The position numbers and the translations under genes were made by a program. Shown piece after piece: positions 1 through 10,894 of a stretch of DNA of 10,894 bases. Location of the stretch: positions 1-10,894 of the IMG/VR virus record IMGVR_UViG_2617270939_000004; one strand, 5' to 3'. The DNA is from a virus. Taxonomy: Duplodnaviria; Heunggongvirae; Uroviricota; Caudoviricetes. The notes under the pieces are model-generated. The model was not told the origin of the DNA. It searched no databases and saw only the letters and a list, made by a program, of their open reading frames with translations. Position 1 is the first letter of the stretch. Every line of letters begins with the position of its first letter.

Positions 1-405
1 GAGGCCTTCCCCGGGTTAATCCGGCAAACCCACCGGAAAATCAGGTCAGCCGCCGCCGATGGCGCTTACGATACCCGGCTATGTCACGATGAACTGCGGC
101 GTAAGAAAATCAGCGCGCTTATCCCTCCCCGAAAAGGTGCGGGTTACTGGCCCGGTGAATATGCAGACCGTAACCGTGCAGTGGCTAATCAGCGAATGAC
201 CGGGAGTAATGCGCGGTGGAAATGGACAACAGATTACAACCGTCGCTCGATAGCGGAAACGGCGATGTACCGGGTAAAACAGCTGTTCGGGGGTTCACTG
301 ACGCTGCGTGACTACGATGGTCAGGTTGCAGAGGCTATGGCCCTGGTACGAGCGCTGAACAAAATGACGAAAGCAGGTATGCCTGAAAGCGTGAGTATTG
401 CCTGA
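1..405 (+). CDS. IS903-like DDE transposase, C-terminal portion (5' end outside the window)
   Basis: Frame 1 is open from base 1 to the TGA at 403-405, so the listed 181..405 ORF is only the tail of a longer protein. The translation ends ...LVRALNKMTKAGMPESVSIA, typical of an IS903-group transposase C-terminus, and the IS terminal repeat follows about 40 bp downstream. Confidence 0.8.
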   Translation, partial: EAFPGLIRQTHRKIRSAAADGAYDTRLCHDELRRKKISALIPPRKGAGYWPGEYADRNRAVANQRMTGSNARWKWTTDYNRRSIAETAMYRVKQLFGGSLTLRDYDGQVAEAMALVRALNKMTKAGMPESVSIA

Positions 406-461
406 AAACACAACCCGCTACGGGGGAGACTTACCCGAAATCTGATTTATTCAACAAAGCC
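1..461 (+). mobile_element. Right end of an IS903-group (IS5 family) insertion sequence; partial, continues beyond the window start
   Basis: Positions 444-461 read GATTTATTCAACAAAGCC, the reverse complement of the IS903/IS102-type terminal inverted repeat GGCTTTGTTGAATAAATC (recalled from memory). The transposase C-terminus lies immediately upstream. Confidence 0.8.
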
Positions 462-559
462 GTTACGATGCTGCAAAAAATGAGATATCACCGCCAAATG
501 GCACTTCTTATACTGCATCAGAAATTTCTATCAAACGTGTTCCTGATGGGCTGTGTCGA

Positions 560-802
560 GTGAGTAATTCATTGGTTAAGACTATCGAATATAATGGAAA
601 TGCAGGCGGTGTAATGAAGTTCACCTATCGTGAATTTGCAAACGATATGGCTCGTGCAGCATTTACAACAGATTTTTCTGTAGATTCTAAGGGAAGTGAT
701 GTTATCGCTTACAAAGGTGCCAAGTTCAAAGTGAACAAGGCTGATAACTCGTCTATTTCTTATACAATTATTTCTGGCTTTGACAAGGCTGTCACGTTCT
801 AG
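560..802 (+). CDS. Hypothetical small protein, possibly the 3' remnant of a gene interrupted by the IS
   Basis: The reading frame is open from 446 to 802, crossing the IS boundary at 461/462. No convincing ribosome-binding site precedes GTG 560 or the first in-frame ATG at 614. The product is Ser/Thr/Asn/Lys-rich and ends in ...GFDKAVTF. I recognise no family. AT-rich like the downstream operon. Confidence 0.3.
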   Translation: MSNSLVKTIEYNGNAGGVMKFTYREFANDMARAAFTTDFSVDSKGSDVIAYKGAKFKVNKADNSSISYTIISGFDKAVTF

Positions 803-906
803 GTTTCACGCTTACTGAGTATGTTACGATTTTGCACATTCTGCATAAACGCGCATGTCTATGCTGCATGAGATCGCATGATCGTTTGAGGATCTTTTGT
901 GTTAAG

Positions 907-930
907 GCCCGCCAGTTCTGGCGGGCTTTT
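907..930 (+). terminator. Rho-independent terminator
   Basis: GCCCGCCAG (907-915) pairs with CTGGCGGGC (918-926) in a GC-rich hairpin, followed by TTTT (927-930). It separates the small ORF from the ATPase operon. Confidence 0.55.
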
Positions 931-1112
931 GCGTAGATCATGCAGGTGCATGAAAACCACTACATAAAGCGGGCAGGCGTGGCGGGGATACGAGCGCGCG
1001 CTGTGCTGTGTGGTATAGGCCTTAATTTAGTATGATTCAATAGTGTCGGGAGCTTTGCGCTGATCAGTCCTAAGTTATATGATAAGAAAAATGCATAAAA
1101 AAGGTTCGGTTC

Positions 1113-2087
1113 ATGGGGTTAGGATTAAAAGACGCTATTGTGCATACCGCTGCGTTTCATCAAAAGGAAACTAATGAATTGCAATTGCCAAACAATCATT
1201 GGCATCCTGGTTTTATCACTGTCTTAGCAGCTTACGTGAATCATCACAAAATTACCGAAGATAACTGTGTTTTGTCATGCCCGGGCTATATGCGAGCTAT
1301 CAATTTACATGGTGCTTTATGGGGAGAGGATCAGTATCAACAGGAACGTGTAAATGTTGGAAGAAATTACAGTTTGGTTACAGCATTAACCAATGTTGAA
1401 GCTGTTGACGTTGCCACTGGTAGTATTAACAGTTGTGTAAGGCAGTTAACATTCCCTGATCGTGATCCGAGAGATTGTCCCAAGGGACTTACAGATCTAA
1501 CCCATGTTATAGGTGAGCTTCACGATAACGTTTGGTCGCATGGAAAATCAACGGGTTTTTCTTTTGCACAACGTTCGGCTGTACCCCACACTCAAAAAAA
1601 AGAGCACTATTTAGAATTTTCTTTGGCGGACTGTGGGTTAGGATTTCTCCGAGAATTGCGGCGAGCTGGTATACCCGGAATTGAGACTCACCAGGATGCG
1701 ATCGCATGGTGTATTCAAGAGGGACATTCATCTAAGCATGCTGATTTGCAGGATGATTGGGCACAGCAGCTTCCCCAGGACTTTATTGGGGGTAGTGTGT
1801 TTGGCCACGGGGTTTCGGTCAAAGAAAAAGATAATAATCATCAAGGGCTTGGGTTGTATCACTTGATGAAATTGATAAAAACATATAATGGGGAATTGCA
1901 ACTGGCTTCAGGAAATGTATGCTTAGAAGCAATAGGTGATGAAGTGAGCTATACTGAATTACGTACTGAATGGCCGGGTGTAGCAATTTCTTGCCGTTTT
2001 AAGATTCATGAACTGGCAGTCGATAAAGATAGCGAAGAAAATGACCCTCAGCTTATGGAAATAATGCGGGCGTTAGGAGGAGAGTAA
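1113..2087 (+). CDS. GHKL (Bergerat-fold) ATPase, anti-sigma-factor/serine-kinase-like, with an uncharacterised N-terminal region of about 125 aa
   Basis: The translation carries an N-box E135-LHD-N139-VWS-H143, a G1 box D173-C-G-L-G177 and a G2 box G245-L-G-L in the canonical order for GHKL ATPases. No histidine-kinase dimerisation/phosphoacceptor region is evident. A-rich stretch with AAGG lies 9-12 nt upstream of ATG 1113. AT-rich, unlike the flanking phage genes. Confidence 0.7.
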   Translation: MGLGLKDAIVHTAAFHQKETNELQLPNNHWHPGFITVLAAYVNHHKITEDNCVLSCPGYMRAINLHGALWGEDQYQQERVNVGRNYSLVTALTNVEAVDVATGSINSCVRQLTFPDRDPRDCPKGLTDLTHVIGELHDNVWSHGKSTGFSFAQRSAVPHTQKKEHYLEFSLADCGLGFLRELRRAGIPGIETHQDAIAWCIQEGHSSKHADLQDDWAQQLPQDFIGGSVFGHGVSVKEKDNNHQGLGLYHLMKLIKTYNGELQLASGNVCLEAIGDEVSYTELRTEWPGVAISCRFKIHELAVDKDSEENDPQLMEIMRALGGE

Positions 2088-2425
2088 TGAACAAAATCGC
2101 ATACAAGTTACCCGAGGGTGACCTGGCTTCGCGCAATCAGGCTATCCCCCAACGACACAAGATTGAAGGGTTCATTAAAGAAGGGTATACCGTAGATTTA
2201 GATTTGAGCGGTGTTTATTCAATTTCAGAATCATACTCTGATGAAATCTTTGGTGTTTTGGTAGTGAAATTCGGTGTAACCAAAGTTTTGAGTCAAGTTA
2301 AGGTTCGCAATGCACCCCCTTCAATTTTAAAAAGTATTGCAAAAGTGATCCAACGCCGTAGTAATGAAGTAGCATCAAAAAAGGTTCATTCCGTTGGATT
2401 TGATGGTTTATACGCCGTTTGTTAA
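2087..2425 (+). CDS. Small STAS-like protein (anti-sigma-factor-antagonist-like; DUF4325-type by recollection)
   Basis: Its ATG overlaps the upstream TAA as TAATG at 2085-2089, and a strong AGGAGG (2075-2080) sits 6 nt upstream, indicating translational coupling. The motif TVDLDLSGVYSISESYSDEIFGV (residues 35-57) resembles the D-L-S-G-V...S-S-G core of SpoIIAA/RsbV-type STAS domains, with candidate phosphorylatable serines at 45-51. Confidence 0.65.
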   Translation: MNKIAYKLPEGDLASRNQAIPQRHKIEGFIKEGYTVDLDLSGVYSISESYSDEIFGVLVVKFGVTKVLSQVKVRNAPPSILKSIAKVIQRRSNEVASKKVHSVGFDGLYAVC

Positions 2426-2442
2426 TATATGGTTAGTTAGAT

Positions 2443-2468
2443 AAAAGGCGCTGAGATTAGCGCCTTTT
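2443..2468. terminator. Bidirectional rho-independent terminator between the cargo operon and portal gene Q
   Basis: A perfect 10-bp stem, AAAAGGCGCT (2443-2452) with AGCGCCTTTT (2459-2468), encloses a 6-nt loop. It is flanked by an A-run on one side and a T-run on the other, so it can terminate on either strand. Confidence 0.6.
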
Positions 2469-2471
2469 CTT

Positions 2472-3509
2472 TTATTCCTGAACACCTAAAACATAGTCAT
2501 CAAAACGTATTACTTCTGCACCCACCCATTCGTTTAGTTCATGTAGTCGCTTCTGTAGTGGCATCAATTCATTGCGAACAAATACAAGACTAGCCTTCTC
2601 CACATCCCCAAAACCCCCAACATTATTTGGCATAATCCCCATCATCTGTGGCGGAACGCGATGTGCTGCCATCATGTCATCGCGGCTGACATTTTTGATA
2701 TTCAGAAACTCATCCTTCGCCGCAACTTCTGACAAAGGGATGATCTGAAGGCCGTCCTTTTTGCCGTTAGGCGAGTACATAAACAGGTTGCGGAAGTTGC
2801 CTGGACCTTTGGCGCTTTTCATCGCGTTGCGGAGATTGTTCACATCCTCCTGATTCTGCGCGGCGTCGGTCATGTACATGATGAAGCCTGCATGGCTGCC
2901 GTTGATGTAATACTTACGGCGGAACAGCGTGGCGGACTCATTGAGCAGGGCTGACGGAATGGCAGAAAGATAGCCGGGCAGGCCGTAGATCTCCTGGTTA
3001 ATGTCCGGTTCCATCAGATGAAAGATGCTGCCTTTCGTGAACTGATACGGCTGTGTTGTCATACCGTATTGCACAAACCAGTAGGTTTCTAGGTCTAACC
3101 CGCGTCGGGTGTATTTTGCCAGGGCCGGTTCAAGGGCGATAACTTCACCGAAGCGGTTCGTGCGTTTCTCCAGGTAGGCGTTACCAAATACCAGATAGTC
3201 CTGCACAAAACGTGAAAAAGCCTGCTGGCTGAGCAGCGGGTGAGGGATGTAGGTACTGGTCAGAATGTTGCACTTTACTGCAATCGGGGAACTGTGATGC
3301 ACAGCAGCGCGGAAGGTGCGCGCCAGTCCGTCAAAGCTGACAGGAGGCTCATACCAGCGATCTGTCTGTACGCATTCCACATAGTCCAGCAGTTCGCGGC
3401 GGTCAAGTACTGGAATGGGATCACCGAAGCTGAATGCTTCGGCTGTAGTCTGGCTTTTAAGCTGGCTCTGTTTCGTCGCCGCAGCGCGGTTCTTCTTACT
3501 CTTTCCCAT
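2472..3509 (-). CDS. Q: P2-family portal protein gpQ
   Basis: The 345-aa translation closely follows P2 gpQ as I recall it (...FGDPIPVLDRRELLDYVECVQTDRWYEPPVSFDGLARTFRAA...). I place the start at ATG 3507-3509, preceded by GGAG, rather than the TTG at 3510-3512 used by the ORF track. This ATG overlaps the stop of P by one base. Confidence 0.93.
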   Translation of the reverse strand: MGKSKKNRAAATKQSQLKSQTTAEAFSFGDPIPVLDRRELLDYVECVQTDRWYEPPVSFDGLARTFRAAVHHSSPIAVKCNILTSTYIPHPLLSQQAFSRFVQDYLVFGNAYLEKRTNRFGEVIALEPALAKYTRRGLDLETYWFVQYGMTTQPYQFTKGSIFHLMEPDINQEIYGLPGYLSAIPSALLNESATLFRRKYYINGSHAGFIMYMTDAAQNQEDVNNLRNAMKSAKGPGNFRNLFMYSPNGKKDGLQIIPLSEVAAKDEFLNIKNVSRDDMMAAHRVPPQMMGIMPNNVGGFGDVEKASLVFVRNELMPLQKRLHELNEWVGAEVIRFDDYVLGVQE

Positions 3510-5275
3510 CAAAAAATCTCCACAATATTGCTGGTATTGGCGGACTCGCCCTGCAGCGGTTCGTTAAAGAGTGCGTGCATTGTTGCCCAAGCCAGATCGG
3601 CATGGCTGGCTTCTTCGCTGCGGCTGGCTTCATAGGTCGGGCGGTTGCCGCTGGCGGTGGTGGCGCGACGGATTGCCATGAATGACTGCGCAATGTCGGT
3701 GTGTCCGGCGTCAAATTCTAGGCGGCGGTGACTGATAATGTCGTAGGCCTTGAGTACCAGGGCGTTTTTAACGTTGGGGTTGTAGACAAACTCCCGGACG
3801 GCAGGAAAGAATGCTTTCACGTTCTCGTAAACCCCGTGGCCGACGCCAGTTGAGTCGATGCCGATGTATGTCACGTTGTACTGTTCGGTCAGTTTTTTGA
3901 TGGCGTCAGCCTGGGCGCGGAAGTCCACCCCGCGCCACTGGTGACGCTCAAGAATGCGGAACTTACCGCCCGGCACGGCTGGCGGTGCCACCACTACGCA
4001 TCCGGCGCTGTCGCCGTTTTGCGTACCTTTTGCCGGGTCATAACCGATCCACACTTCGCGCCAGCCAAAGGGGCGCAGAGCCAGTGCATGAAAGTCGGTC
4101 CAGACTTCCCAGCTGTCCACCATGCACGCCTGCAGCTCGCTGAGCGGGAACACGGACGCGAGATCGTCCACGAACTCGCACATCAGCAGGTTCTGGTATT
4201 CGTCCGGGCTGTACTCCATGCGCAACTGGTCAAGGTCGAACAGGTTACAGCCGCCGCGCACCGCATCTTCCACGGTGACTATCTGGCGGTATTGCCCGTC
4301 TGCGCACAGCAGGCCGGGGGCCAGATTGCTGTGGGACAGGTCGATGTCCACCTTATCGGCTTTGTTGCGCCCACGGTTGAACAGCGCACCAGACCAGAAC
4401 GGATAAGCACTGTGTGTCAGGCTGGATGGCGTGGAAAAATAGGTTTGTCGCCATTTTTTGTGAATAGCCATACCGGAAGCCACTTTGCGCAGCTCCTGGA
4501 ATTTCGGTATCCAGAAATATTCATCCAGATACAGGTTGCCGTGATAACTCTGGGCAGTGCGGGCATTGGTGCCGAGGAAGTAAAGCGTGGCCCCGTTAGG
4601 AAGCACCATCGGATCGCCTTTCAGCTCCACCTCGACTTCTTTGGCGAAGTCGATGATGTATTGCTTAAAGACGTGAGCCTGTGCCTTACTGGCAGAAAGG
4701 AAAATCTGGTTACGTCCGGTAAGCAGGGCGTCAATCAGGGCTTCACGGGCAAAGTAAAAGGTCGCGCCGATCTGGCGTGACTTCAGCAGATTACGGATGC
4801 GGTTGGTTTTTCCAGCTTCCCACCAGTGGCGCTGGTAGTTGAACATGGAGGAATGGAAGATTTCTTCCAGCTTCTCAATCTGTTCATCGGTGAAAACATT
4901 CTTTTCCGGCTGACGGCGCGGCCCTTTGTTGCGGTTGGCGACGTTAGGGTTTAAGTCGGCTTCGTTGCCGCCATTGTTAAACTTGCCGATCCGCGCGTGG
5001 CGCTCCGACTGGCGTGCCAGCAGGTCAATTTCTTTGAAATCTTTCCCTTCTTTGTGCTCCTTCATAATGAGCTGGCAATAGCGTGCGGCGGTGGTGAGCT
5101 GCATCTGATCCAGCGGCCCATAGTCACCCCACTTGTCGCGTTTTTTCCAGCTGTGAACGGTTGCAACTTTCTCGCCCAGCATTTCAGCAATGCGGGCTAC
5201 GCGGTATCCCTGAAAGTACAGCAGCATGGCCTGCCGACGGGGATCGAGATCTGCGGGTGTCAGTGTGGTGTTCAT
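3509..5275 (-). CDS. P: P2-family terminase large (ATPase) subunit gpP
   Basis: 588 aa, the size and sequence character of P2 gpP. It lies immediately upstream of Q on the same strand with an overlapping stop/start, matching the P2 Q-P arrangement. Confidence 0.93.
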   Translation of the reverse strand: MNTTLTPADLDPRRQAMLLYFQGYRVARIAEMLGEKVATVHSWKKRDKWGDYGPLDQMQLTTAARYCQLIMKEHKEGKDFKEIDLLARQSERHARIGKFNNGGNEADLNPNVANRNKGPRRQPEKNVFTDEQIEKLEEIFHSSMFNYQRHWWEAGKTNRIRNLLKSRQIGATFYFAREALIDALLTGRNQIFLSASKAQAHVFKQYIIDFAKEVEVELKGDPMVLPNGATLYFLGTNARTAQSYHGNLYLDEYFWIPKFQELRKVASGMAIHKKWRQTYFSTPSSLTHSAYPFWSGALFNRGRNKADKVDIDLSHSNLAPGLLCADGQYRQIVTVEDAVRGGCNLFDLDQLRMEYSPDEYQNLLMCEFVDDLASVFPLSELQACMVDSWEVWTDFHALALRPFGWREVWIGYDPAKGTQNGDSAGCVVVAPPAVPGGKFRILERHQWRGVDFRAQADAIKKLTEQYNVTYIGIDSTGVGHGVYENVKAFFPAVREFVYNPNVKNALVLKAYDIISHRRLEFDAGHTDIAQSFMAIRRATTASGNRPTYEASRSEEASHADLAWATMHALFNEPLQGESANTSNIVEIF

Positions 5276-5321
5276 GGCACAAACCTACAACCTTGAATGA
5301 AGGCTTTCCCCGCCTGCGGTT

Positions 5322-5339
5322 TGTGTGGTTGTCGGTACA
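5322..5339. promoter_or_regulatory. Candidate Ogr/Delta activator site (TGT-N12-ACA) of a P2-type late promoter
   Basis: TGT (5322-5324), 12 nt, then ACA (5337-5339), in the 142-bp divergent P-O intergenic region. It is centred about 88 bp upstream of the O start codon, compatible with the -55 position described for P2 late promoters. It is the only exact TGT-N12-ACA in this intergenic region. Confidence 0.35.
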
Positions 5340-5417
5340 AATACCGCGCATTGTTTCACTGCCACCATCACCGCAACCATAAGGCTCCAGTAAGTTTTTT
5401 CTAACGGAGCACAGCTC

Positions 5418-6251
5418 ATGACAGTGAAAGCAAAGCGTTTTCGCATCGGGGTGGAAGGTGCCACCACCGACGGACGCGAAATCCAGCGTGAATGGCTGGA
5501 ACAGATGGCAGCCAGCTACAACCCGACGATGTACACCGCGCTGATTAACCTTGAGCACATCAAGTCTTATCTGCCGGACAGCACCTTTAACCGCTACGGC
5601 AAGGTGACGGCGCTGTTTGCTGAAGAAATCACGGAAGGTCCGCTGGCAGGCAAGATGGCGCTGTATGCCGACGTTGAGCCAACGGAATCACTGGTGGAAC
5701 TGGTGAAAAAAGGCCAGAAATTATTCACCTCTATGGAAGTCAGCCCGAAGTTTGCTGATACGGGCAAAGCCTACCTGGTCGGCCTGGCTGCCACTGATGA
5801 CCCTGCCAGTCTGGGCACTGAAATGCTGACATTCAGCGCCAGTGCAGCCCATAACCCGCTGGCAAACCGCAAGCAGAATCCCGCCAATCTTTTTACCGCT
5901 GCAGAGGAAACGGTGATCGAACTGGAAGAAATCCAGGATGACAAACCGTCCCTGTTTGCCCGTGTCACGGCGCTGTTCACCAAAAAAGAGCAGTCCGATG
6001 ACGCCCGGTTCTCTGATGTGCATAAGGCCGTGGAACTGGTCGCCACTGAGCAGCAGAACCTGAGTGCGCGCACCGAAAAATCCCTGTCTGAGCAGGAAGA
6101 ACGCCTGTCTGAGCTGGAGACTGCCCTGCAGGCACAGCAGACCGCCTTTAACGAACTGGTGGACAAGCTGAGCCAAGAAGACAGCCGCCAGGACTACCGC
6201 CAGCGTGCAACAGGCGGTAACGCCCCCGCTGACACTCTGACCAATTGCTGA
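5418..6251 (+). CDS. O: P2-family capsid scaffolding protein gpO
   Basis: 277 aa, diverging from P at the position P2 O occupies. The sequence resembles P2 gpO from memory, including a C-terminus ending ...TNC. Confidence 0.9.
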   Translation: MTVKAKRFRIGVEGATTDGREIQREWLEQMAASYNPTMYTALINLEHIKSYLPDSTFNRYGKVTALFAEEITEGPLAGKMALYADVEPTESLVELVKKGQKLFTSMEVSPKFADTGKAYLVGLAATDDPASLGTEMLTFSASAAHNPLANRKQNPANLFTAAEETVIELEEIQDDKPSLFARVTALFTKKEQSDDARFSDVHKAVELVATEQQNLSARTEKSLSEQEERLSELETALQAQQTAFNELVDKLSQEDSRQDYRQRATGGNAPADTLTNC

Positions 6252-6267
6252 TGGAGCACAAAACCTG

Positions 6268-6441
6268 ATGAAGAAGAACACCCGCCGCCGTTCAGTTATC
6301 GACAACCCGAAACGTGACCGGATTGAAAACTTTGAATCCGTTAACGAAGCCTATGTGGTTGAGGACTACCGCTGCGCCGCACTGGTGGAAAACATCCAGA
6401 TTGGTGATTTCAGCGCCGCCGCAGCCGAAACCGGAGCGTAA
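6268..6441 (+). pseudogene. N: Remnant of major capsid gene N (57 codons, where P2 N is about 357)
   Basis: This short ORF (MKKNTRRRSVIDNPKRDRIENFESVNEAYVVEDYRCAALVENIQIGDFSAAAAETGA) occupies the N position between O and M. It resembles the extreme C-terminus of P2 gpN as I recall it (...RRVIEENPKLDRVENYESMNIDYVVEDY...VGDFS...). The stop is 3 nt before the M start, as at a normal N-M junction. Confidence 0.55.
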
Positions 6442-6444
6442 TCC

Positions 6445-7095
6445 ATGAGCCTGAGTCCCGCACGGCAGCATCGCCTGCGCGTTCAGGCTGAACAGGCCGC
6501 CCGCGAGGGCGGCAGTGTTCGCCACGCATCGGGCTATGACCTGATGCTGCTGCAACTGGCGGAAGACCGCCGCCGTCTCAAGGGCGTTCAGTCCACGGTC
6601 AAAAAAGCGGAAATCAAGGTGGAGCTGCTGCCGAAGTACGCCGCCTGGGCAGAGGGTGTCCTGGCTGCCGGAGGCGCTCAACAGGATGACGTGCTGATGT
6701 ACGTGATGCTGTGGCGCATTGATGCCGGAGATTATGCCGGAGCGCTGGAGATCGGGCGTCATGCCCTGCGTCATGGCTGGGTGATGCCGCTGGGTAACCG
6801 CAACGTGCAGACCGTGCTGGCAGAGGAAATGGCAGACGCCGCGCAGAGCGCAATGCTTGCCACCACCGGCTTTGATGCCGATCTGTTGCTGCAGACGCTG
6901 GAGCTGACAGACGGTCTGGATATGCCGGACCAGTCACGGGCGCGTCTGCATAAAGCGATTGGCGCGGTCCTGAGTGAAAGCAATCCGGCGTCTGCCCTTA
7001 ATCATCTCAACCATGCGTTACAGCTCGATCCCCGCTGTGGCGTGAAAAAAGACAAACAGCAGCTGGAGCGCAGACTGCGCAATGACAGCCGCTGA
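6445..7095 (+). CDS. M: P2-family terminase small (endonuclease) subunit gpM
   Basis: 216 aa. The N-terminal region (MSLSPARQHRLRVQAEQAAREGGSVRHASGYDLMLLQLAEDRRRLKGVQS...DDVLMYVMLWRIDAGDYAGALEI...) matches P2 gpM by recollection, and the gene follows N in P2 order. Confidence 0.9.
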   Translation: MSLSPARQHRLRVQAEQAAREGGSVRHASGYDLMLLQLAEDRRRLKGVQSTVKKAEIKVELLPKYAAWAEGVLAAGGAQQDDVLMYVMLWRIDAGDYAGALEIGRHALRHGWVMPLGNRNVQTVLAEEMADAAQSAMLATTGFDADLLLQTLELTDGLDMPDQSRARLHKAIGAVLSESNPASALNHLNHALQLDPRCGVKKDKQQLERRLRNDSR

Positions 7096-7190
7096 CAGAA
7101 CGTGCCCCCGCGCACGGGCGGCACGGGGTGGCGAAAGGCACTGCCACATCAAAACCCCGTCCACCGCCCTCTATTTCAGGAGAAAGCAGC

Positions 7191-7730
7191 ATGAAGTTTG
7201 TTGCGCCAGAACAGGCACCGGAACAGGCGGAAATCATCAGAAATACGCCGTTCTGGCCTGATGTGGACCTGTCGGAGTTTCGCAGTGTCATGCGCACTGA
7301 CGGCACGGTGACGCAGCCGCGTTTAAAGCAGGTTGCGCTGTCGGCAATTTCGGAGGTCAACGCAGAGCTGTATGAGTTTCGCAGACGCCAGCAGATGCTG
7401 GGGTATGCCTCGCTGGCAGAGGTTCCGGCGGAACAGCTGGACGGCAAAAGTGAGCGCATTCAGCACTATTTCAACGCGGTTTACTGCTGGGCACGCGCCA
7501 TGCTCAACGAACGTTACCAGGACTATGACACCACGGCATCCGGTGTGAAGCGGGGCGAGGAACTGGCGGAAGCCAGCGGTGATTTATGGCGTGACGCCCG
7601 CTGGGCCATCAGCCGGGTAGATGATGCGGAATGGACCATTACGACTCTGACGCATACCGTCAGCCCCGATAACGGTTTTACAACCAGTCTGGAGCTTGAA
7701 GTGAGGATTGATGATTTCGAAATGGAATGA
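7191..7730 (+). CDS. L: P2-family head completion protein gpL, with a C-terminus that may be altered by a deletion junction
   Basis: I start it at ATG 7191, which has AGGAG at 7178-7182 eight nt upstream; the ORF-track start at 7128 lacks comparable support. The product is 179 aa. The central region (...NAELYEFRRRQ...LAEVPAEQLDG...DLWRDARWAI...) is gpL-like. The last 35 residues or so do not resemble the gpL end I recall. Confidence 0.75.
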   Translation: MKFVAPEQAPEQAEIIRNTPFWPDVDLSEFRSVMRTDGTVTQPRLKQVALSAISEVNAELYEFRRRQQMLGYASLAEVPAEQLDGKSERIQHYFNAVYCWARAMLNERYQDYDTTASGVKRGEELAEASGDLWRDARWAISRVDDAEWTITTLTHTVSPDNGFTTSLELEVRIDDFEME

Positions 7731-7820
7731 TTCTTCGCAATGGAGAACTTTTAAGTTTGCAAAATGGAATAATGCGGTATCATTATTGTGAATTTAGCAA
7801 AAATGGGGAGAACTCGAAAA

Positions 7821-8039
7821 ATGATGATTTGCCCACTGTGTGGAAGTGCCGCCCATACTCGCAGCAGTTTTCAGGTATCTTCATTGACCAAAGAGCGTTA
7901 CAACCAGTGCCAGAACATTAACTGCAGCCATACTTTTGTTACCCATGAAACTTTTGTTCGTTCGATTGCAACGCCAAAAGAGTCAAATCCGGTTCAGCCG
8001 CATCCAATGAAATCAGGACAGGTGGCGCTCTCTCTTTGA
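7821..8039 (+). CDS. ogr: Ogr/Delta-family zinc-finger late-gene transcription activator
   Basis: 72 aa starting MMICPLCGSAAHTRSS..., with an exact C4-x2-C7-x22-C30-x4-C35 zinc-finger spacing, as in P2 Ogr. GGGGAG (7806-7811) lies upstream of ATG 7821. The ORF-track GTG start at 7788 is probably too far upstream. Confidence 0.88.
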   Translation: MMICPLCGSAAHTRSSFQVSSLTKERYNQCQNINCSHTFVTHETFVRSIATPKESNPVQPHPMKSGQVALSL

Positions 8040-8125
8040 CGCTGCCGCCATTTTGTCGCCATCGTTAAAAAACAGTGTTTCTAACATCATGATTTTAAAC
8101 AGCTTAAATTTCAGGCAACAAAAAA

Positions 8126-8162
8126 CCCATCAACCTTGAACCGAAATGGCGGGGTTGATGGG
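8126..8162 (-). terminator. Rho-independent terminator downstream of ybjL
   Basis: CCCATCAACC (8126-8135) pairs with GGTTGATGGG (8153-8162) in a 10-bp stem around a 17-nt loop. On the minus strand it is followed by a run of six T (complement of 8120-8125). Confidence 0.5.
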
Positions 8163-8274
8163 CTCCACAAAATGGGGACATCAAAGAAAAGCAGTGGCAC
8201 TAATTAAGACTGATGCCCTGCGGAAAAGTTCTGCGGTTGTGCAAAAAAATTTCATTTTCAGGGCAACTTCAGTT

Positions 8275-9960
8275 TTATCCTAATCCTGGCCATACCATGA
8301 CGATGATTGTCCCTGCCAGCGTCAGCAGGACGTTGGCGATTGCGTAGGTGCCCGCATAGCCCAGCGCAGGGATGTTACTGCGAGCTGTATCACTGATGAT
8401 CTCCATTGCCGGCGCGCAGGTGCGTGCGCCCATCATTGCGCCGAACAACAGTGCGCGGTTCATTCGCAATACATAAGCACCGAACAAGAAACAGATAACC
8501 ACGGGCACAAGACTGACAATTAATCCGGCAATCAACATCTGACCGCCAATCGCGCCCAGGCCGTTATTAATACCGCTACCGGCGCTCAGACCAACGCCTG
8601 CCATAAACACCATCAAGCCGAACTCTTTCACCATGCTTAATGCACCTTGCGGAATGTAACCGAAGGTCGGGTGGTTAGCACGCATAAAGCCCAGCATAAT
8701 TCCGGCGAATAACAACCCGGCAGCGTTCCCCATGCCGAAACTGAATGTGCTGAACTGGAAGGTGATCATCCCGATCATCAGCCCAATAACAAAGAAGGCG
8801 CAAAATGCCAGCAGGTCAGTGACCTGGCTGTGAATCGAGATAAAGCCGATGCGATCGGCGATGGTTTTTACGCGACGGGCATCACCGCTGACTTGTAAAA
8901 CGTCACCTTTGTTAAGCACGACGTTGTCATCTATCGGCATCTCAATCTGGCTACGAATGACGCGGTTAAGGAAGCAACCGTGATCGGTCAACTTCAGTTG
9001 TGCGAGACGTTTACCTACAGCGTTATGGTTTTTAACGACCACTTCTTCAGTGACGATACGCATGTCGAGAAGGTCACGATCGAAAACTTCTTTACCGTTA
9101 CGGAAGCTGGGATCGAGTCGGGCATGGGCGTCGGGATAGCCTACCAACGCTATTTCATCGCCCATTTGTAGCACGGCATCACCGTCTGGATTTGCCAGAA
9201 TCCCGTTACGTCGAATACGTTCAATGTAGCAGCCGGTTTGTCGATAAATACCCAGTTCACGCAGATTTTTGCCGTCGGTCCAGGCCACCAGCTCCGGGCC
9301 GACGCGATAGGCGCGGATCACCGGTAAATAAACCTTACGGTTGGCATCAGTGTCCAGGCCACGTTCGCGGGCGATTTGCTGGGCGCTGGTCTGTAAGTCC
9401 TGATGCTGCAATTTCGGCAAGTAACGCGCACCAACAATCAAACTCACCAGACCGATTAAATAGGTTAAGGCATACCCGAGGCTCAGATTATCCAGTGCCA
9501 GTGAGAGCTGCCTGCTTTCCATGCCGGAATGACGCAGTGTATCGCCAGCACCGACCAGAACCGGTGTCGACGTCATAGAGCCTGCTAACATACCGGCCGT
9601 CAGGCCAATATCCCAGCCAAACAGCTTACCTAACCCTAAGGCGATCACCAGCGCACTGCCAACCATCACCAGTGCTAACATTAGGTAATTTTTCCCATCG
9701 CGAAAAAAAATGGAAAAAAAGTTCGGTCCGGCTTCGACCCCGACGCAGAAAATAAACAGCATAAAGCCAAGATTAAGCGCGTCGGTGTTAATGCTGAAAT
9801 GTTGTTGGCCTAATAACAGTGATACGACCAAAACGCCAATGGAATTACCCAGTTGGATCGAACCAAGTCGTAACTTTCCGAGACATAGCCCAAGCGCGAG
9901 GACCACAAATAATAACAGAATGTAATTCCCATTTAACAATTCGGCGACGTTTATATTCAC
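8275..9960 (-). CDS. ybjL: Putative transport protein YbjL (AAE-family inner-membrane transporter)
   Basis: The 561-aa translation ([39 protein letters not shown]...VMVWPGLG) matches E. coli YbjL from memory. It is multi-spanning and hydrophobic, with a central soluble region. Confidence 0.93.
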
Positions 9961-10229
9961 GGAGGCTAACTTCTTGTTTACTAGTAAGCTGTTGAAAGAA
10001 ATGGTAATTTACGATAATGTTTTTTACCAGAATTCAGGGCGCAGATTCATTCAGCGCACCTAAACGATAGTAAAGTAACAATATATTTTACTAGTGTAAT
10101 CACATTAGGTATCAACGGCTATATGAATTGCGTTGGCCTATATTAGCATGGAATGCGAAGCGGCTTTATCTTACTGAACGCCACACTGGCGAAAAATGTG
10201 TTCGATAGACGCAGTGTCAGGAGGAACGA

Positions 10230-10607
10230 GTGAAACATAAACAACGTTGGGCGGGGGCAATCTGCTGTTTTGTCCTCTTCATTGTGGTGTGCCTTTTTCT
10301 GGCGACGCACATGAAAGGCGCTTTTCGGGCTGCCGGGCATCCTGAAATCGGCTTGCTGTTTTTCATTCTTCCTGGAGCAGTTGCCAGTTTCTTTTCACAG
10401 CGTAGAGAAGTCCTGAAACCTCTATTTGGCGCAATGCTGGCGGCACCCTGTTCAATGCTTATTATGCGGCTGTTTTTTTCACCGACCCGCTCATTCTGGC
10501 AAGAGCTGGCATGGTTACTAAGCGCGGTGTTCTGGTGTGCGCTGGGGGCACTGTGTTTCTTATTTATCAGTAGTTTGTTTAAACCACAGCACAGAAAAAA
10601 TCAGTAA
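10230..10607 (+). CDS. ybjM: Inner membrane protein YbjM
   Basis: 125-aa hydrophobic protein with a GTG start preceded by CAGGAGG. Its position between ybjL and grxA and its divergent orientation match the E. coli ybjL-ybjM-grxA arrangement. Confidence 0.88.
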   Translation: MKHKQRWAGAICCFVLFIVVCLFLATHMKGAFRAAGHPEIGLLFFILPGAVASFFSQRREVLKPLFGAMLAAPCSMLIMRLFFSPTRSFWQELAWLLSAVFWCALGALCFLFISSLFKPQHRKNQ

Positions 10608-10627
10608 AGCCCTCAACGCGAGGGCTT
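10607..10627. terminator. Shared hairpin terminator between convergent ybjM and grxA
   Basis: AAGCCCTC (10607-10614) pairs with GAGGGCTT (10620-10627) around a 5-nt loop, placed between the two convergent stop codons. Confidence 0.5.
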
Positions 10628-10636
10628 GTCAGACGA

Positions 10637-10894
10637 TCAGGCGTCCAGATTTTCTTTCACCCATGCAGCAAAATCGGTATAGCCGCCGATATGTTGCTGA
10701 TCGACAAAAATCTGCGGCACGGTTTCTACGGGTTTACCTGCCTTTTGTTGTAGATCTTCTTTAGTGATCCCTTCCGCACGAATATCTACATACTGATACT
10801 GAAAATCATCGCGTTCATTGCTCAATTTCTCAGCCAGATCTTTTGCACGCACACAGTAAGGGCAACCCGAACGACCAAAAATAACGGTTTGCAT
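10637..10894 (-). CDS. grxA: Glutaredoxin 1
   Basis: The 85-aa translation MQTVIFGRSGCPYCVRAKDLAEKL...AAWVKENLDA carries the CPYC active site and matches E. coli GrxA. The start codon sits at the very end of the window. Confidence 0.95.
   Translation of the reverse strand: MQTVIFGRSGCPYCVRAKDLAEKLSNERDDFQYQYVDIRAEGITKEDLQQKAGKPVETVPQIFVDQQHIGGYTDFAAWVKENLDA

Follow-up and report, generated by a model that had tools for sequence, protein, structure and literature searches.

A 57-codon open reading frame (ORF) lies between the head genes O and M of a P2-type operon, at the position where P2-like phages carry the major capsid gene N. The question that this locus raises is whether so tidy a loss of one gene calls for an explanation beyond the ordinary erosion of a prophage. 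The DNA analysed, hereafter the window, is the whole stretch of 10,894 nucleotides (positions 1 to 10,894 of the IMG/VR record IMGVR_UViG_2617270939_000004). The reading that we favor, with a probability of about 0.9, is that the short ORF is a product of ordinary neutral decay in a P2-like prophage, generated by one short-repeat deletion and having no function of its own.

Of the prophage, which is P2-like (Peduoviridae, Wadgaonvirus-like) and defective, the window holds the right-hand part. From the ORF listing and Pfam scans, the late region within it is of the P2 type and has the order Q-P / O-deltaN-M-L'::'D-ogr, with the following features.

2472-3512, minus strand: portal gene Q, full length (Pfam match; same length as in the sister prophages)
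3509-5275, minus strand: large terminase gene P, full length (Pfam match; same length as in the sister prophages)
5322-5339, plus strand: TGT-N12-ACA dyad in the P-O intergenic region, a candidate Ogr site read from the sequence
5418-6251, plus strand: capsid scaffold/protease gene O, full length (277 aa; PF05929)
6252-6267, plus strand: native O-N spacer with the ribosome-binding site of N (GGAG at 6253-6256), collinear with and near-identical to the spacer of intact relatives
6268-6441, plus strand: 57-aa N stub ORF, between O and M
6445-7095, plus strand: gene M for the small terminase/endonuclease subunit, full length (216 aa; PF05944, E=1.4e-40)
7191-7730, plus strand: L'::'D fusion ORF (PF05926 match; BLAST arms to phage 500465-1)
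7822-8039, plus strand: late-gene activator gene ogr, intact (PF04606, E=6.7e-22; also called as a gene in an identical locus)

The late promoters of P2 contain dyads of the TGT-N12-ACA type that are bound by Ogr. Beyond the prophage, the window continues into the chromosomal genes rybB, ybjL, ybjM, and grxA. Long ORFs were also found antisense to M, O, and P (e.g., one of 160 aa at 6292-6774 on the minus strand), and these probably amount to shadow ORFs of the genes on the other strand. The Rfam scan returned nothing inside 6252-6444, its sole match being rybB outside the prophage, and scans of 6252-6444 for promoters and terminators returned nothing, with counts at the level of shuffled sequence.

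The gap between O and M was measured to be 193 bp (6252-6444), slightly above the 190 bp given in the original prediction. The statement made there that O and M are full length was borne out by the Pfam matches and by the lengths of the two genes (834 bp for O and 651 bp for M), which equal those of intact relatives; residues 6-277 of gpO match positions 2-268 of the 268-position PF05929 profile from end to end (E=6.9e-113). The 57-aa ORF matches positions 286-327 of 327 in the gpN profile PF05125 (E=2.8e-15, 56.7 bits versus a cutoff of 27) and positions 283-326 of 326 in TIGR01551, the latter with only 29.4 bits versus an equivalog cutoff of 219.65. Its sequence reads MKKNTR followed by RRSVID...ETGA. 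Over its final 51 residues, it does not differ from the C-terminal end of N (352 aa) in phage 500465-1 and in the STEC1587 prophage. The N stop codon (TAA at 6439-6441) is separated from the M start by 3 nt, the same distance as in the references, and the ribosome-binding site of M (GGAG at 6433-6436) is located within the surviving 3' end of N. The ORF had indeed been proposed to be the extreme C-terminus of gpN with the normal tight N-M spacing, and both points are in agreement with these matches. At its other end, the stub starts at the genuine N ATG behind the native GGAG site, and both ends of the gene are thus retained.

In all the intact relatives examined, the O-M position is occupied by an N of 351-352 aa (352 aa in the Wadgaonvirus 500465-1 and 351 aa in vB_EcoM-813R9) and not by a short gene. 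An intact 352-aa relative aligns over its full length with the structure of P2 gpN (7jw1, E=2.7e-136). Judged from these sequence comparisons, the ORF at 6268-6441 is a remnant of the P2-family major capsid gene N, beyond chance similarity. By the same comparisons, it is what is left of a family member and not a functional member, as most of the capsid fold is uncovered. With approximately 84% of the HK97-fold protein gone, the stub cannot build a capsid or the HK97 fold.

The missing part of N was mapped by megablast of 5400-7200 against the phage collection. For 50 records, the query was covered in two pieces with 96.6-97.5% identity, and the segment that measures 1801 bp in the window spanned 2683-2686 bp in the intact records. 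An overlap of 13 nt between the two BLAST arms was seen at 6273-6285, and N has undergone a single in-frame deletion of 885 bp (295 codons). Alignment with related phages and prophages, which the original prediction had suggested for locating the endpoints and any microhomology, yielded this one deletion with A[T/C]ACCCGC at both ends. A single clean loss of most of N had been anticipated correctly, at a size of about 900 bp instead of 885 bp. The accompanying view that only the 3' end of N was left in place had to be revised: the ribosome-binding site, the ATG, and the first four to six codons also survive, and the deletion is internal and in frame. The parts of the stub are as follows.

6268-6278, plus strand: 5' remnant of N, comprising the ATG, codons 1-3, and the first two bases of codon 4 (the left alignment arm reaches 6285)
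6277-6285, plus strand: deletion junction, comprising the hybrid codon 4 AAC and then ACCCGC (6280-6285), from base-level comparison with intact copies
6279-6441, plus strand: 3' remnant of N, beginning with the third base of codon 299 and running to codon 352 and the stop (right arm, with 97-99.7% identity to the 3' ends of intact N)

In the seven references inspected, codons 1-7 of intact N invariably read ATG AAG AAG AAT ACC CGC TTT and codons 296-302 TGG CAG GAA GAC ACC CGC CGC, while the stub begins ATG AAG AAG AAC ACC CGC CGC CGT. The hexamer ACCCGC is found at N nucleotides 13-18 and 898-903, preceded by A[T/C], in 7/7 intact references. The endpoints accordingly lie in an imperfect repeat, A[T/C]ACCCGC (7 of 8 positions match), which covers N codons 4-6 and 299-301, and the ACCCGC of codons 300-301 is common to the left repeat. 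Codon 4 of the stub (AAC) is a hybrid of the left AAT and the right GAC, in which the A at 6277 matches the left copy alone (G in the right one) and the C at 6279 the right copy alone (T in the left one). We considered an ancestral N with AAC at codon 4, which would have provided a perfect 8-bp repeat. When a 92-nt AAC probe was searched against 5,426 complete E. coli genomes, 988 carried the matching region and none of them matched the probe exactly, making such an ancestor unlikely. As codon 4 was AAT in all seven intact copies and the AAC probe had no exact match, the C at 6279 is assigned to the distal copy. The hybrid codon thus places the exchange either at the single shared A or within ACCCGC, in the latter case with the T/C mismatch resolved toward the distal copy. 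No foreign or inserted DNA, insertion sequence (IS) end, or recombinase site was found at the N junction, where the arms abut and overlap and leave no unaligned bases.

The anatomy of the junction, as read from the sequence, is that of a short-repeat illegitimate deletion. We infer that N lost its 885 bp in one event of RecA-independent illegitimate recombination or replication slippage, in which AAT-ACC-CGC (codons 4-6) would have recombined with GAC-ACC-CGC (codons 299-301) and left the hybrid AAC-ACC-CGC. With the two repeats in the same codon phase, such an event would produce an in-frame 57-aa stub that keeps the translation signals of N and the ribosome-binding site of M. Direct 6-mer repeats are abundant in intact N (267 pairs, of which 43 are at least 600 nt apart), and 57% of the pairs have in-frame spacing. 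This spacing is frequent in N because repeated codons create such pairs, and an in-frame outcome is therefore to be expected in about half of such deletions. The stub would then be a by-product of neutral decay, like the deletion that made L'::'D and the IS fragment at the window's left end.

The second internal deletion is much larger. The L'::'D ORF joins approximately 146 of the 154 codons of the head-completion gene L in frame to the last approximately 37 codons of the late-control gene D and terminates at the native D stop, with approximately 110 bp of D retained. Approximately 15.6 kb is missing at this junction, including every lysis and tail gene; the two BLAST arms in phage 500465-1 correspond to 12915-13443 and 29030-29140. 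The L-D junction (7617-7619) lies in imperfect quasi-repeats (CAGCCG...GATGCG) with a strict crossover of 1 nt, in the same style as the N junction. The O-N-M-L order described in the original prediction is indeed conserved, but the operon cannot be called otherwise preserved, with L truncated and fused to D and the lysis and tail genes gone. At the contig edge, window positions 1-405 (plus strand) encode the C-terminal 134 codons of an IS5-family transposase (NF033579, E=3.6e-37), and collinearity with a sister prophage resumes at window position 462, inside the gene for WP_000700647.1. The IS probably interrupted the prophage near position 462 and caused the contig break. The element combines a P2-type gene order with the absence of essential morphogenesis genes that are present in the complete STEC1587 and S171-1 prophages. 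Since the 15.6-kb L-D deletion is by itself lethal to the phage, no additional advantage has to be assumed for the loss of N.

By exact match of the protein, the window was assigned to contig JNQD01000105.1 of E. coli 2-156-04_S4_C2, and a locus 100% identical to the window was recovered with an offset of 1 nt. The prophage is inserted between rcdA and ybjL, at the rybB 3' end, and its right end is marked by the following gene.

8117-8195, minus strand: RybB sRNA (Rfam RF00110, 105 bits), immediately right of the prophage

A 14-nt att core, AACAAAAAACCCAT, is found at window positions 8117-8130 and overlaps the rybB 3' end. The same AACAAAAAACCCAT is repeated at attL beside the integrase in the complete STEC1587 prophage (locus position 10574), and the attL of the window's own prophage falls outside the contig. 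From these sequences, the P2-like phage family appears to use the 3' end (terminator) of rybB as its integration site and to restore it on insertion.

In STEC1587 and S171-1, the rcdA-rybB/ybjL site is occupied by apparently complete prophages whose cargo genes are those of the window and whose N is intact, and decayed ones were found as well. The E. coli PSJ-16 prophage carries the same cargo and is approximately 99% identical to the window over the shared segments; its O is fused to D out of frame (O'::'D), with 315 bp of D kept (locus 7566-8674). PSJ-16 was considered as a further-decayed descendant of the window allele and rejected: its 315 bp of D exceeds the approximately 110 bp left in the window, and its deletion is thus independent. 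WWCOL-315 has lost the lysozyme-to-tail-fibre interval as well as the interval from the invertase gene to D (locus 11218-13169), and O adjoins L in EC26. These loci show that prophages at the rybB/ybjL site decay by different, independent deletions across E. coli lineages, forming a series of decay states. The original prediction had regarded the clean, nearly gene-sized loss of N as unusual for random decay; this finds no support, given the short imperfect repeats at the junction, which are typical of illegitimate recombination, the independent deletions at the same site, and an in-frame outcome being expected about half of the time.

A comparison with PSJ-16 was made in search of relaxed selection, and the differences in Q, P, and O are mostly synonymous (pN/pS of 0.04-0.14). 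Over 853-6219 of the window, divergence from PSJ-16 is a mosaic, with pS of approximately 0.5-1.3% in the cargo genes and Q and of 5-9% in P and O. Taken at the sequence level, this mosaic indicates recombination among related, functional P2-like phages before inactivation, and the low pN/pS thus reflects the history of functional phages and not selection on the remnant. Divergence that built up in functional phages ahead of a recent inactivation would be just as likely to give a low pN/pS.

The stub junction was absent from the 5,426 complete E. coli genomes. The exact 57-aa protein was recorded on 57 contigs, indexed in 72 blocks (NCBI and Logan assemblies), and the two other loci that were fetched were 100% identical to the window over the shared length. 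The identical junction and protein were present in NCBI GCA_000704025.1 and Logan SRR33018279. The window derives from a draft assembly, and the stub might in principle be an artefact of an assembly collapsed between two short repeats. The same junction in independent assemblies from different sources, the recovery of the protein on 57 contigs, and an imperfect repeat of 8 nt, far too short for assembly collapse, leave this reading with practically no weight. The stub allele is real but rare and apparently young, and the stub reads as a recent pseudogene. It has already been deposited in GenBank (KDX36231.1) under the label "phage major capsid, P2 family protein".

Two functional explanations for the stub or for the loss of N were weighed against neutral decay, with arguments that draw in part on a pair of cargo genes next to Q.

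1113-2087, plus strand: 324-aa cargo protein with faint GHKL/HATPase_c similarity (E~0.09)
2087-2425, plus strand: 112-aa DUF4325 STAS-like cargo protein, whose gene overlaps the 324-aa gene by one base

The pairing resembles anti-sigma/anti-anti-sigma partner switching. No confident assignment of the 324-aa protein was obtained by PADLOC, NCBIfam, and Pfam scans. The pair is located in the cos-proximal P2 defence hotspot (PMC9122126), between the gpA side and gpQ. At an identity of at least 98%, it was found in 19 of the 5,426 complete E. coli genomes and was absent from the phage collection. On the strength of its sequence and position, the pair is a candidate for an uncharacterised anti-phage system.

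One explanation is that positive selection favored the loss of N because it disarmed the prophage, averting lethal induction, exploitation by a P4-like satellite, or an autoimmunity that N triggered with the neighbouring cargo system (faint GHKL-like ATPase and STAS-like protein). Inactivating prophage deletions are known to be advantageous in some cases (reviewed in PMC6379469), and both of the closely examined remnants with this cargo (the window and PSJ-16) are without N. We nevertheless consider disarming very unlikely, as the cargo pair coexists with an intact N in the apparently complete same-site prophages of STEC1587 and S171-1, strain B27 and the DG/OZ392436 strains have the cargo and an N 3' end approximately 5 kb apart, and the L-D deletion would have killed the phage by itself. 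Autoimmunity driven by the cargo was rejected as the selective cause, since complete prophages hold the same pair together with an intact N.

The other explanation is that the stub, possibly with the L'::'D fusion and Q, P, O, and M, has been retained because it interferes with P2-like phages or P4-like satellites that superinfect the cell. The Ogr or Delta that these bring in would activate the late promoters of the remnant, and the capsid fragment or the fusion proteins would poison head assembly in a dominant-negative manner. The native ribosome-binding site and ATG of N, the dyad upstream of O, and an intact ogr have all been kept, and the remnant lies beside a conserved cargo pair in a P2 defence hotspot (PMC9122126). 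Neither internal deletion shifts the frame, and Q, P, O, M, and ogr are still ORFs of full length, which could hint at selection keeping the late operons translatable. These signals, however, are what any recent deletion would also leave, and approximately 57% of 6-mer repeat deletions in N are expected to be in frame. In addition, a 57-aa end of the HK97-fold A-domain is unlikely to fold or co-assemble, sister remnants exist without any N, the PSJ-16 fusion is out of frame, and the allele occurs only in a rare and apparently clonal lineage, a distribution that gives no sign of maintenance by selection. Retention for interference is thus highly improbable. The fullest version, in which the in-frame stub and L'::'D are kept translatable under Ogr-dependent promoters and the dead prophage serves as an assembly-poisoning immunity module against P2-like phages and P4, is more improbable still. 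If interference were true, it would mean that a dead prophage reuses its broken structural genes as a defence.

Under neutral decay, the phenomenon is one already known, and the consequence is mainly one of annotation: the entry KDX36231.1 should be named a pseudogene remnant of gpN, not a capsid protein. The locus shows clearly that deletions between short imperfect repeats stay in frame, and look deliberate, when the repeats share a codon phase. It also illustrates the decay of prophages via different deletions at the same integration site in different E. coli lineages.

Compared with P2 gpN (PF05125/TIGR01551; PDB 7jw1), the stub has the same O-M position, start codon, stop, and spacing to M, and differs in retaining 57 of the 352 residues (codons 1-6 and 302-352). 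Its junction is like those of RecA-independent short-homology deletions in enterobacteria, in which progenitor repeats are found at both endpoints, one copy is kept, and no foreign DNA is present at the junction. It differs from the enterobacterial slippage deletions in three respects: only 7 of the 8 repeat positions match, the copy left behind is a hybrid, and the strict crossover interval shrinks to 1 nt if no mismatch correction is assumed. Defective P2-like elements in which core genes have become pseudogenes while the cargo is conserved are reported to be common, and no core gene is consistently lost from them, except that primase pseudogenes are more frequent (PMC13586616). The element in the window resembles the cryptic P2-like prophages of E. 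coli (PMC13586616; PMC9122126) in having core genes pseudogenised or deleted, a cargo pair intact between the gpA side and gpQ, a fixed chromosomal integration site, and complete versions in other strains. It shows no essential difference from them and stands out only in that both of its internal deletions are in frame and leave ORFs of tidy appearance.
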